A stretch of DNA of 64,000 nucleotides, taken from the NCBI RefSeq assembly GCF_051903065.1, contig NZ_CP178438.1; one strand, given 5' to 3'. Positions within the stretch are counted from its first letter, which is position 1. Each line of letters begins with the position of its first letter. A program made the position numbers. Shown piece by piece: positions 12,001 to 15,000 of the stretch. The stretch comes from Escherichia coli (GTDB lineage Bacteria; Pseudomonadota; Gammaproteobacteria; Enterobacterales; Enterobacteriaceae).

Positions 12001-15000
12001 GCAGGCGGATTATTTTGTGGCAAACACGTGTTCTTTTTGATTTCGCGCAAAAAGATTCAGAATTTTACTGTTAGTTTCCTCGCGCAGTAATACCCCTGAA
12101 AAAAGAGGAAAGCAATGGACGTCAGTCGCAGACAATTTTTTAAAATCTGCGCGGGCGGTATGGCTGGAACAACAGTAGCGGCATTGGGCTTTGCCCCGAA
12201 GCAAGCACTGGCTCAGGCGCGAAACTACAAATTATTACGCGCTAAAGAGATCCGTAACACCTGCACATACTGTTCCGTAGGTTGCGGGCTATTGATGTAT
12301 AGCCTGGGTGATGGCGCGAAAAACGCCAGAGAAGCGATTTATCACATTGAAGGTGACCCGGATCATCCGGTAAGCCGTGGTGCGCTGTGCCCGAAAGGGG
12401 CCGGTTTGCTGGATTACGTCAACAGCGAAAACCGTCTGCGCTACCCGGAATATCGTGCGCCAGGTTCTGACAAATGGCAGCGCATTAGCTGGGAAGAAGC
12501 ATTCTCCCGTATTGCTAAGCTGATGAAAGCTGACCGTGACGCTAACTTTATTGAAAAGAACGAGCAGGGTGTAACGGTAAACCGTTGGCTTTCTACCGGT
12601 ATGCTGTGTGCCTCCGGTGCCAGCAACGAAACCGGGATGCTGACCCAGAAATTTGCCCGCTCCCTCGGGATGCTGGCGGTAGACAACCAGGCGCGCGTCT
12701 GACACGGACCAACGGTAGCAAGTCTTGCTCCAACATTTGGTCGCGGTGCGATGACCAACCACTGGGTGGATATCAAAAACGCTAACGTCGTAATGGTAAT
12801 GGGCGGTAACGCTGCTGAAGCGCATCCCGTCGGTTTCCGCTGGGCGATGGAAGCGAAAAACAACAACGATGCAACCTTGATCGTTGTCGATCCCCGTTTT
12901 ACGCGTACCGCTTCTGTAGCGGATATTTACGCACCTATTCGTTCCGGTACGGACATTACGTTCCTGTCTGGCGTTTTGCGCTACCTGATCGAAAACGACA
13001 AAATCAACGCTGAATACGTTAAGCATTACACCAACGCCAGCTTGCTGGTGCGTGATGATTTTGCTTTCGAAGACGGTCTGTTCAGCGGCTACGACGCTGA
13101 AAAACGGCAATACGATAAATCGTCCTGGAACTATCAGTTCGATGAAAACGGCTATGCGAAACGCGATGAAACACTGACTCATCCGCGCTGTGTGTGGAAC
13201 CTGCTGAAAGCGCACGTTTCCCGCTACACGCCGGACGTTGTTGAAAACATCTGTGGTACGCCAAAAGCCGACTTCCTGAAAGTGTGTGAAGTGCTGGCCT
13301 CCACCAGCGCACCGGATCGCACAACCACCTTCCTGTACGCGCTGGGCTGGACGCAGCACACCGTGGGTGCGCAGAACATCCGTACTATGGCGATGATCCA
13401 GTTGCTGCTCGGTAACATGGGTATGGCCGGTGGCGGCGTGAATGCATTGCGTGGTCACTCCAACATTCAGGGTCTGACTGACTTAGGTCTGCTCTCTACC
13501 AGCCTGCCAGGTTATCTGACGCTGCCGTCAGAAAAACAGGTTGATTTGCAGTCGTATCTGGAAGCGAACACGCCGAAAGCGACGCTGGCTGGTCAGGTGA
13601 ACTACTGGAGCAACTATCCGAAGTTCTTCGTTAGCCTGATGAAATCTTTCTATGGCGATGCCGCGCAGAAAGAGAACAACTGGGGCTATGACTGGCTGCC
13701 GAAGTGGGACCAGACCTACGACGTCATCAAGTATTTCAACATGATGGACGAAGGCAAGGTTACCGGTTATTTCTGCCAGGGCTTTAACCCGGTTGCGTCC
13801 TTCCCGGACAAAAACAAAGTGGTGAGCTGCCTGAGCAAGCTGAAGTATATGGTGGTTATCGATCCGCTGGTGACTGAAACCTCTACCTTCTGGCAGAACC
13901 ACGGCGAGTCGAACGATGTCGATCCGGCGTCTATTCAGACTGAAGTATTCCGTCTGCCTTCGACCTGCTTTGCTGAAGAAGATGGTTCTATCGCTAACTC
14001 CGGTCGCTGGTTGCAGTGGCACTGGAAAGGTCAGGACGCGCCGGGTGAAGCGCGTAACGACGGCGAAATTCTGGCGGGTATCTACCATCATCTGCGCGAG
14101 TTGTACCAGGCCGAAGGTGGTAAAGGCGTAGAACCGCTGATGAAGATGAGCTGGAACTACAAGCAGCCGCACGAACCGCAATCTGACGAAGTAGCTAAAG
14201 AGAACAACGGCTATGCGCTGGAAGATCTCTATGATGCTAATGGCGTGCTGATTGCGAAGAAAGGTCAGTTGCTGAGTAGCTTTGCGCATCTGCGTGATGA
14301 CGGTACAACCGCATCTTCTTGCTGGATCTACACCGGTAGCTGGACAGAGCAGGGCAACCAGATGGCTAACCGCGATAACTCCGACCCGTCCGGTCTGGGG
14401 AATACGCTGGGATGGGCCTGGGCGTGGCCGCTCAACCGTCGCGTGCTGTACAACCGTGCTTCGGCGGATATCAACGGTAAACCGTGGGATCCGAAACGGA
14501 TGCTGATCCAGTGGAACGGCAGCAAGTGGACGGGTAACGATATTCCTGACTTCGGCAATGCCGCACCGGGTACGCCAACCGGGCCGTTTATCATGCAGCC
14601 GGAAGGGATGGGACGCCTGTTTGCCATCAACAAAATGGCGGAAGGTCCGTTCCCGGAACACTACGAGCCGATTGAAACGCCGCTGGGCACTAACCCGCTG
14701 CATCCGAACGTGGTGTCTAACCCGGTTGTTCGTCTGTATGAACAAGACGCGCTGCGGATGGGTAAAAAAGAGCAGTTCCCGTATGTGGGTACGACCTATC
14801 GTCTGACCGAGCACTTCCACACCTGGACCAAGCACGCATTGCTCAACGCAATTGCTCAGCCGGAACAGTTTGTGGAAATCAGCGAAACGCTGGCGGCGGC
14901 GAAAGGCATTAATAATGGCGATCGTGTCACTGTCTCAAGCAAGCGTGGCTTTATCCGCGCGGTGGCTGTGGTAACGCGTCGTCTGAAACCGCTGAATGTA

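Follow-up and report, generated by a model that had tools for sequence, protein, structure and literature searches.

Selenocysteine codon 196 of fdnG and its SelB-type hairpin in an Escherichia coli genome

Selenocysteine elements of Escherichia coli formate dehydrogenases

The experimentally dissected reference for bacterial selenocysteine (Sec) insertion is the element of E. coli fdhF (formate dehydrogenase-H, Sec140), which belongs to the Rfam family SECIS_2; the genuine element scores 87.1 bits on that model. Its bulged U17 and the loop bases G23 and U24 have been described as contacts of the elongation factor SelB (PMC8659212). A closer relative of the gene considered here is fdoG (formate dehydrogenase-O), a paralogue at another locus that also carries Sec at codon 196. 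Mass spectrometry of E. coli FdnG and FdoG has detected Sec, never Cys, at position 196, and in selC mutants translation terminates at this codon (PMC3636253). Those measurements were made in strain MC4100 (PMC3636253), and the element described below was matched to the K-12 sequence.

The locus lies in a window, i.e., the whole stretch of E. coli DNA analysed, of 64,000 nucleotides. Its TGA at 12700-12702 is the well-known, already characterised Sec196 codon of formate dehydrogenase-N (FDH-N), followed by a textbook SelB-binding hairpin. Compared with fdnG of K-12, the 59-nt element has the same sequence, the same score (84.3 bits) and the same codon number, with no difference within the element. 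The K-12 gene differs at 37 of 3048 nucleotides, all of them strain-level polymorphisms outside the element, and its product by five substitutions in 1015 residues (N295D, L342F, E366A, D493G and S666A); operon and neighbouring genes are unchanged. In fdoG, 71 nt (12697-12767) are identical and the SECIS_3 score is again 84.3 bits, although the two paralogues share only 77% of their protein and 75% of their DNA sequence and the gamma subunit of formate dehydrogenase-O falls in another NCBIfam model. The more distant fdhF element shares the UGA-CAC-GG opening, the 11-nt spacer, an apical stem that opens with GG, the bulged U17 and the loop G23-U24, all at equal distances. It differs in having an apical stem of 6 bp with a 4-nt loop (GGUC), where fdnG has 7 bp and a 3-nt loop (GUC), and in its lower helix and encoded peptide. 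By analogy, the element in the window would work like that of fdhF but sits in the sister Rfam family SECIS_3. The locus is an instance of textbook bacterial UGA recoding in a respiratory molybdo-selenoenzyme, and adds no new knowledge of the process.

The fdnG gene and operon

The gene, the export signal of its product and the two genes that follow it in the operon are:

12115..15162, + strand: fdnG, alpha (catalytic) subunit of formate dehydrogenase-N, 1015 residues including Sec196 (translation, 1KQF_A, TIGR01553, RefSeq)
12115..12213, + strand: Tat signal peptide region of FdnG (MDVSRRQFFK... ALA), from the SRRQFFK motif in the translation
15175..16059, + strand: fdnH, iron-sulfur beta subunit (TIGR01582, 482 bits, cutoff 335; RefSeq)
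16052..16705, + strand: fdnI, cytochrome b gamma subunit (NF007558)

An initial annotation of this DNA had proposed that a single in-frame TGA separates two same-frame ORFs which together make up the complete alpha subunit, so that the ORF track splits one gene. Both statements hold. Translation of 12115-15162 (+ strand) gives 1016 codons with a terminal stop and one internal stop, TGA 12700-12702 at codon 196, whereas the remaining two forward frames contain 48 and 66 stops. The ORF list closes one ORF, 12115-12702, at this TGA and opens the next in the same frame at ATG 12751, leaving pieces of 195 and 803 codons. When joined, the product matches PDB 1KQF chain A, the major subunit of nitrate-inducible formate dehydrogenase, over its full length (2393 bits), with the stop opposite the non-standard residue X196. 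The NCBIfam model TIGR01553 covers residues 2-1014 with 1619.1 bits, well above its curated cutoff of 814. RefSeq likewise has one fdnG CDS spanning the stop, with equal coordinates, in a near-identical genome, and a single CDS in K-12. For annotation, then, a naive ORF caller splits fdnG, and the pieces need joining, with codon 196 entered as a Sec exception.

The true start at ATG 12115 is preceded by a Shine-Dalgarno-like AAGAGGAAA. The Tat signal peptide of FdnG is presumably about 33 residues long. Such a signal has been mentioned for catalytic subunits of this kind (PMC3636253). The second ORF begins as follows:

12751..12753, + strand: ATG heading the second mechanical ORF, an internal methionine of FdnG and no start codon (in frame with 12115; aligned to Met213 of 1KQF_A)

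On sequence grounds the gene is fdnG of FDH-N rather than its paralogue fdoG, because the models for FdnI, the gene order and the distance to known proteins agree. FdnI scores 486.9 bits on the FDH-N-specific model NF007558, above its cutoff of 339, but only 268.4 bits on NF007924 for the cytochrome b556 subunit, below the cutoff of 341. The order yddG-fdnGHI-yddM-adhP-maeA is that of K-12, and the product has 5 differences from K-12 FdnG as against 77% identity to FdoG. When the window was compared base by base with strain 23CRST027, 19,793 mismatches appeared; BLAST traced this artefact to an offset of 1 base together with an extra IS1.

The selenocysteine codon

The codon that interrupts the frame is:

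12700..12702, + strand: UGA codon 196, selenocysteine, presumed molybdenum-ligand position (X196 of 1KQF_A; Sec columns of FdoG and FdhF)

This TGA had been read as the expected Sec codon, and protein alignment bears this out: the Sec columns of FdnG (196), FdoG (Sec196) and FdhF (Sec140) coincide, and the active-site Sec/Cys residue is not placed elsewhere. A 25-nt degenerate motif combining Sec codon and hairpin occurs once in the window, where 100 shuffles gave an expectation of 0.00.

The SECIS element

Downstream of the codon a SelB-dependent hairpin had been predicted, with an end at 12745. The features found there are:

12697..12755, + strand: SECIS element, Rfam SECIS_3 (RF01989; 84.3 bits, gathering score 63, E = 1.6e-19, full model 1-59)
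12714..12731, + strand: apical SelB-binding hairpin GGUAGCAAGUCUUGCUCC, 7 bp, loop GUC (identical fold in all contexts tried; homologues)
12705..12712, + strand: lower helix, 5' arm (nt 6-13 after the U of UGA; MFE structure, weakly supported)
12737..12745, + strand: lower helix, 3' arm (nt 38-46), in which the E. coli register leaves one G bulged (MFE structure)

The match begins with the in-frame UGA, since model positions 4-6 of SECIS_3 are occupied by 12700-12702. Its paired part is 12703-12745, so that the proposed end coordinate is exactly the end of the Rfam pairing. The fdhF-type model SECIS_2 (RF01988) reaches only 28.8 bits on the window, below its gathering score of 70. The apical hairpin comprises nt 15-32 and begins 11 nt past the UGA, in agreement with the published distance (PMC8659212). 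Within the stem an unpaired, bulged U at 12716 corresponds to U17 (counting from the U of UGA), and the apical loop presents G23 at 12722 and U24 at 12723, the conserved loop G thus lying about 20 nt downstream of the UGA. The predicted hairpin is therefore borne out by a SECIS_3 match and by the published SelB determinants at their published distances, while SelB binding itself is taken from the literature. The position of the codon and the 3' limit of the hairpin had both been given to the base from sequence alone, which makes the locus useful as a positive control.

The lower helix is less regular. In E. coli its register is one position off the Rfam consensus; with the Rfam register imposed, two of its pairs become non-canonical (A·G and A·C). 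A basal helix extended so as to enclose the UGA, like that of the SECIS_2 model, was suggested by the MFE structure of 81 nt and by outer RNAalifold pairs, and was not accepted. These outer pairs fall in alignment columns 9-12/84-87 and 19-21/75-77, which show no variation, or one-sided variation only that is explained by coding (CAG, GTC, ATG, TGG). One outer pair alternates between AU and GC but is unpaired in 15% of the sequences.

Folding stability

Folding places a hairpin immediately 3' of the TGA, as the initial annotation expected; the stability it also looked for does not go beyond that of shuffled sequences. Folding z-scores against shuffles are -0.76 for 51 nt, -1.44 for 48 nt, +0.65 for 81 nt and -2.06 for the 18-nt apical hairpin. 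The predicted stability is within the shuffled range and is not significant alone. Folding energy was dropped as a test for more than chance structure, because the validated fdhF element behaves alike (z = -0.67) and the comparison does not discriminate. The weight rests on the covariance-model score and on comparative data. As a calibration of method, even SECIS hairpins that have been validated escape shuffle z-scores, but they stand out clearly with covariance models and with synonymous-site covariation.

Comparative evidence

A scan of one genome per species yielded 120 matches, of which 6 chance matches without formate dehydrogenase context were left out. The others are 104 FdnG-type and 10 FdhF-type sites from many bacterial lineages, and every one has a TGA followed by such a hairpin. 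Helix statistics come from 70 distinct FdnG-type sequences found in other bacteria. Pairing in the apical helix reaches 97.8% across them, and four of its seven pairs have changed on both sides. The bulged U and the loop U are invariant in all 70, and 68 of them have the loop G. Controls in which the pairing was slid had 27-50% of cells paired, compared with 90% observed. None of 500 shuffles gave a covariation score as high as that observed, although the shuffles ignore phylogeny, so that 0/500 is not a probability. In the 59 sequences that encode the same V-A-[S/G]-L-A peptide, synonymous third positions are complementary in 100% of cases, where 88% and 60% would be expected if they were independent. 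Taken together, these comparisons argue firmly for selection on the apical helix at the level of RNA.

The lower helix has a different record. In both registers 82-84% of cells are paired in the 70 homologues; no pair has changed on both sides in register A, and one has done so in register B, in 3 of the 70 sequences. Neither the Rfam register nor that of the E. coli MFE structure is preferable, given equal pairing and essentially no compensatory change. Compensatory substitution supports the apical helix, then, and not the lower one. Unpairing of the lower helix has been reported to cost roughly 25% of read-through efficiency.

Of the genes for the recoding machinery, selA-selB were found in the species, 5425 of the 5426 complete E. 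coli genomes having them. A search of the window for sel genes and tRNA genes found none.

Recoding at codon 196

The UGA at codon 196 of fdnG is almost certainly recoded to Sec by way of SelB and the bacterial SECIS on its 3' side. The mRNA just 3' of the UGA would fold as such an element, with the hairpin at 12714-12731 presenting the bulged U17 and the loop bases G23 and U24. From established E. coli knowledge, this hairpin would be bound by the C-terminal winged-helix domains of SelB, the N-terminal part of which would carry GTP and Sec-tRNA(Sec), the product of SelA and SelD acting on the selC tRNA. Once the UGA is in the ribosomal A site, the tethered complex would deliver Sec-tRNA(Sec), competing with release factor 2. 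The expected outcome is the full 1015-residue, Tat-exported catalytic subunit of 113 kDa. Sec196 is presumably a ligand of the molybdenum cofactor, an assignment which, like Sec insertion, comes from the literature. Where selenium or a sel gene product is missing, translation would end at codon 196.

The identical island

The conservation extends beyond the hairpin:

12697..12767, + strand: island of 71 nt, identical throughout to the paralogue fdoG and to fdnG/fdoG in other Enterobacterales (sequence comparison)

No other identical run shared by fdnG and fdoG, genes that are 75% identical overall, is as long. The island is also identical at loci of Providencia, Photorhabdus, Yersinia, Klebsiella, Citrobacter and Enterobacter, where the flanks are in most cases 73-86% identical. 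Between fdnG and fdoG, 23 consecutive residues have identical codons, compared with 60% of same-amino-acid codons gene-wide. Many of those codons (GGA, CCA, ACG, GTA, AGT, CTT and ACA) are not preferred in E. coli. Outside the Enterobacterales the sequence of the element does change, via compensatory substitutions.

The island takes in the lower helix with its weak pairing, linker nucleotides that are unpaired, and some 20 nt on the 3' side of the hairpin. It is conceivable, although rather unlikely, that within the Enterobacterales the mRNA is constrained past the published minimal SelB-binding hairpin and that the extended element has some further function. If so, candidate functions would be contacts with the ribosomal mRNA entrance or with SelB during decoding, control of ribosome pausing, or the balance of termination and recoding. 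The extended constraint could equally come from codon preference or from repeated gene conversion. Codon preference is an alternative because the codons 3' of the hairpin are of the type favoured in E. coli.

Alternative explanations

A mechanical ORF list, which breaks the frame at 12702 and resumes it at ATG 12751, could be taken to mean that the TGA is a genuine stop, with fdnG either a nonsense-mutated pseudogene or two separate genes. The probability of this is close to nil, and the conservation of the TGA already refutes it: the same codon in the same protein context recurs across the FdnG-type and FdhF-type loci of the scan, and of 5426 E. coli genomes, 5425 contain the 161-nt segment that surrounds it. 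The 16 codons from the TGA to ATG 12751 are conserved active-site sequence, that ATG encodes Met213 within the protein and no Shine-Dalgarno sequence was found before it, and the RefSeq annotation consists of one CDS. Equally negligible is read-through of the UGA without SelB or Sec-tRNA(Sec), for example by a near-cognate Trp or Cys tRNA, with the downstream conservation owed to the protein only. The highly conserved active-site peptide (HGPTVASLAPTFGRGAMTN) does by itself constrain many nucleotides, but it does not account for synonymous third positions that covary so as to preserve the helix, nor for the run of identical and often non-preferred codons in fdnG and fdoG; and the reported absence of Cys at position 196, with termination there in selC mutants, is at odds with such decoding (PMC3636253).

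Recoding by SelB is the preferred reading of the codon. For the 71-nt identity with fdoG, recent gene conversion between the paralogues, in place of selection on the RNA, is a very improbable source. The identical run is sharply bordered within 75%-identical sequence, much like a short conversion tract, but most of the distant genera examined have the same borders, 12697-12767, within their less conserved flanks, so that the same tract would have to have been converted many times independently. Outside the Enterobacterales, moreover, the changes are compensatory substitutions. Gene conversion would bear only on the origin of the conservation, and not on the nature of the element.

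The fdnG reading frame and its UGA codon

The TGA at 12700-12702, which the sequence and its translation place exactly, to the base, where the initial annotation had put it, lies in the context ...GCG CGC GTC TGA CAC GGA CCA ACG GTA GCA AGT CTT GCT CCA ACA TTT GGT CGC GGT GCG ATG.... Two ORFs of the same frame are listed around it, 12115-12702 (195 codons) and 12751-15162 (803 codons). When 12115-15162 is translated, codon 196 is the sole internal stop among 1016 codons; the remaining two forward frames of this stretch contain 48 and 66 stops. AAGAGGAAA is found directly upstream of ATG 12115, and inspection of the sequence upstream of ATG 12751 revealed no such site. 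The stop-masked joined product aligns over residues 1-1015 with residues 1-1015 of PDB 1KQF chain A ('formate dehydrogenase, nitrate-inducible, major subunit'; 2393 bits), and RefSeq carries a single fdnG CDS whose coordinates map exactly to 12115-15162, which bears out the earlier proposal that the two ORFs are one gene. The stop falls opposite the non-standard residue X196 of 1KQF chain A. In a three-way alignment with the formate dehydrogenase-O paralogue FdoG and with FdhF (formate dehydrogenase-H), the selenocysteine (Sec) codons FdnG 196, FdoG 196 and FdhF 140 share one column in the motif ARV-U-HGP, so that the TGA is indeed the expected Sec codon.

Five residues (N295D, L342F, E366A, D493G and S666A) distinguish the protein from K-12 FdnG, and 37 of 3048 nucleotides the gene from K-12 fdnG, whereas identity to FdoG is only 77%. 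On the NCBIfam model for the FDH-N alpha subunit, TIGR01553, the joined product scores 1619 bits (cutoff 814). The next two genes encode FdnH (TIGR01582) and FdnI, the latter above the cutoff of the FDH-N-specific gamma model NF007558 (486.9 bits vs 339) and below that of the cytochrome b556 subunit model NF007924 (268.4 bits vs 341). Megablast of 11900-16800 hit 5425 of 5426 complete genomes of E. coli, in which the operon is always annotated fdnG-fdnH-fdnI; three of these genomes are 100% identical over this segment. The arrangement of the neighbours yddG, yddM, adhP and maeA is that of K-12.

The SECIS element

The region 12697-12755 (+) matches Rfam 15 family SECIS_3 (RF01989) over the full model with 84.3 bits (gathering score 63, E = 1.6e-19). 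The fdhF-type family SECIS_2 (RF01988) gives only 28.8 bits, below its threshold of 70, while genuine fdhF scores 87.1 bits on it. The element studied here shares its sequence and SECIS_3 score with the K-12 fdnG and fdoG elements; it is none other than the fdnG SECIS of E. coli, belongs to SECIS_3 and is nothing new. ViennaRNA predicted two helices in every context tried.

Predicted helices of the fdnG SECIS element
12714-12731, + strand: apical hairpin GGUAGCAAGUCUUGCUCC
12705-12712 with 12737-12745, + strand: lower helix, beneath the apical hairpin

The hairpin anticipated by the initial annotation is thus recovered, and with it the published SelB determinants. With the U of UGA as nt 1, the apical hairpin begins at nt 15, an 11-nt spacer after UGA, with U17 (12716) bulged and G23 and U24 (12722-12723) in the loop. 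According to a review of fdhF work, the spacer/start position, the bulged U17 and loop G23/U24 are essential for SelB binding (PMC8659212). These features also agree with the description of bacterial SECIS hairpins (PMC4605307), in which the stem measures 6-8 bp and a conserved G of the loop lies about 20 nt past the UGA. The K-12 fdhF element has the same G15 G16 U17 ... G23 U24 register, with a stem of 6 bp and a 4-nt loop in place of the 7 bp and 3 nt of fdnG; the fdnG SECIS is a functionally equivalent sister of this SECIS_2 element.

In the standard bacterial model (PMC4605307), the C-terminal winged-helix domains of SelB would bind the apical hairpin while its EF-Tu-like part holds GTP and Sec-tRNA(Sec); with the hairpin at the mRNA entrance, SelB would hand Sec-tRNA(Sec) to the UGA in the A site. 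Neither sel genes nor tRNA genes occur within the 64-kb window; selA-selB is found in 5425 of the 5426 complete genomes of E. coli. Codon 196 has direct experimental support from strain MC4100, and the SECIS sequence in the window is that of K-12. In purified MC4100 Fdh-N and Fdh-O, mass spectrometry identified residue 196 as Sec and in no case as Cys, and in selC mutants translation ends at codon 196 (PMC3636253).

The lower helix is weaker than the apical one, being 82-84% paired in both registers with almost no two-sided changes. This weakness fits the report that unpairing the lower part reduces read-through by only about 25% (PMC8659212). Imposed on E. coli, the Rfam register contains A·G and A·C mismatches, which the minimum free energy fold sidesteps by a one-position shift and a bulged G. 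The enterobacterial lower helix (12703-12748) departs in this way from the SECIS_3 consensus, and homologues in which alignment column 12 is C adopt the Rfam register, those in which it is A the shifted one.

Evidence for selection on the RNA

By thermodynamics alone the fdnG hairpin is not beyond chance in a shuffle test, with z-scores of -0.76 (51 nt), -1.44 (48 nt), +0.65 (81 nt) and -2.06 (apical 18 nt). The test is unable to detect such elements, because the experimentally validated fdhF element scores -0.67 in both versions. Stability is therefore non-discriminating, and reliance is placed on comparative evidence.

One genome per species was scanned with the pattern GCNCGNGTNTGACAYGGNCC, which fixes only ARV-UGA-HGP. 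At least 120 loci were found; among the matches listed, 104 were FdnG-type, 10 FdhF-type and 6 chance hits. These listed matches yielded 70 distinct 60-mers, on whose gap-free alignment (A1) the Rfam structure was imposed. Pairing in the apical helix is 97.8%, and four of its seven pairs are changed on both sides. For example, columns 24/30 hold AU 42, CG 23 and GC 3 times, and columns 21/33 hold GC 53, AU 9 and CG 4 times. Neither the bulged U nor the loop U varies, and 68 of the 70 have the loop G. None of 500 shuffles reached the observed covariation score or the observed percentage paired, and sliding the partners by 1-3 columns lowered pairing among the listed matches from 90% to 27-50%. 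RNAalifold, supplied with 98 distinct 105-nt segments and no structure, recovered both the apical and the lower helix.

The covarying columns are third codon positions. In the 59 distinct sequences encoding V-A-[S/G]-L-A among the matches listed, Val3/Ala3 and Ala3/Leu3 are complementary in 100%, against 88% and 60% expected under independence, an excess that tells RNA-level from protein-level constraint. This synonymous covariation, together with the published mass spectrometry and genetics, rules out Sel-independent read-through with purely protein-level conservation. A true stop or a pseudogene is ruled out because the TGA and its surroundings are conserved in more than 100 species and because conserved active-site sequence bridges the 'gap' between the two ORFs. 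The observation is confirmed, its interpretation supported, and the feature already known.

At the DNA level, identity between fdnG and fdoG is 75%, and the two use identical codons at only 60% of same-amino-acid positions. Their longest identical run is 71 nt (12697-12767; 23 consecutive identical codons), which starts 3 nt before UGA and spans the SECIS. Gene conversion could contribute to this identity, but the same borders recur in Providencia, Photorhabdus, Yersinia, Klebsiella, Citrobacter and Enterobacter, with flanks 73-86% identical in most, and such recurrence in distant genera points to selection. In Enterobacterales the invariant island measures 71 nt vs 17-18 nt for the minimal SelB-binding hairpin and extends about 20 nt beyond the structure. 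An extra constraint on the extended island, beyond the SelB-binding hairpin, is improbable; codon preference or gene conversion would be simpler accounts of it.

Genomic surroundings

fdnGHI is under anaerobic control. The sequence TTGAT-TTCG-CGCAA at 12037-12050, 65-78 nt before the fdnG start, has 8 of 10 positions of the FNR consensus TTGAT-N4-ATCAA and, as a candidate site, would be consistent with such control; a simple sigma-70 scan gave no promoter-like site on the + strand near it. About 5.5 kb upstream of the operon, on the opposite strand, 1-6574 contains narH (partial), narZ and narU, encoding a second nitrate reductase and a nitrate/nitrite transporter, so that formate-oxidation and nitrate-reduction genes are neighbours in the window. 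An intact 366-aa porin gene (9642-10742, -; 'ompC' in RefSeq) has as its K-12 counterpart only a short yddL remnant. In place of K-12 yddK, the porin gene is adjoined by LRR gene fragments (8594-9477) and a gene for a T3SS effector with leucine-rich repeats that is EspR1-like (6894-8150).

Downstream of fdnI (16725-16932), two copies of the 27-nt hairpin-forming AAATGGCGCTGTAAAAGGCGCCATTTT (16728-16754 and 16906-16932), separated by 178 bp, flank REP-like palindromes; the second copy scores terminator-like. This 178-bp hairpin-plus-REP unit is present once in the window and twice in K-12, which indicates a tandem repeat, variable in copy number, that consists of a terminator-like hairpin and a REP element. 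Inside it, in the fdnI-yddM gap, are sub-threshold Rfam matches to ES036/CssrF (16818-16860, 30.7 bits vs a gathering score of 37.6) and naRNA4/CssrE (16856-16896, 20.1 bits vs 59.5).

Collinearity with E. coli 23CRST027 (99.99%) extends over the whole window, interrupted only by an additional IS1 (768 bp, 46556-47323, +) in the 3' end of ydeP, an acid-resistance gene for a putative oxidoreductase of the FdhF/YdeP family. The 9-bp direct duplication CCATGCGGC borders it at 46547-46555 and 47324-47332, and the ydeP ORF (47318-49447) encodes 709 aa vs 759 aa in 23CRST027, which is without this IS1 copy. At about 46859-46867 the IS1 contains TTAAAAAAC, the motif that the literature gives for the insA/insB' -1 frameshift; judged from it, the window would have another translational recoding signal besides that of fdnG.

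The fdnG/fdoG SECIS segment has roughly 10,800 matches in E. coli, seven or eight of them on plasmids. One, annotated fdnG on a 294-kb plasmid (NZ_CP170379.1, 127259-127407), is only 88.6% identical, which suggests a divergent plasmid-borne formate dehydrogenase copy.
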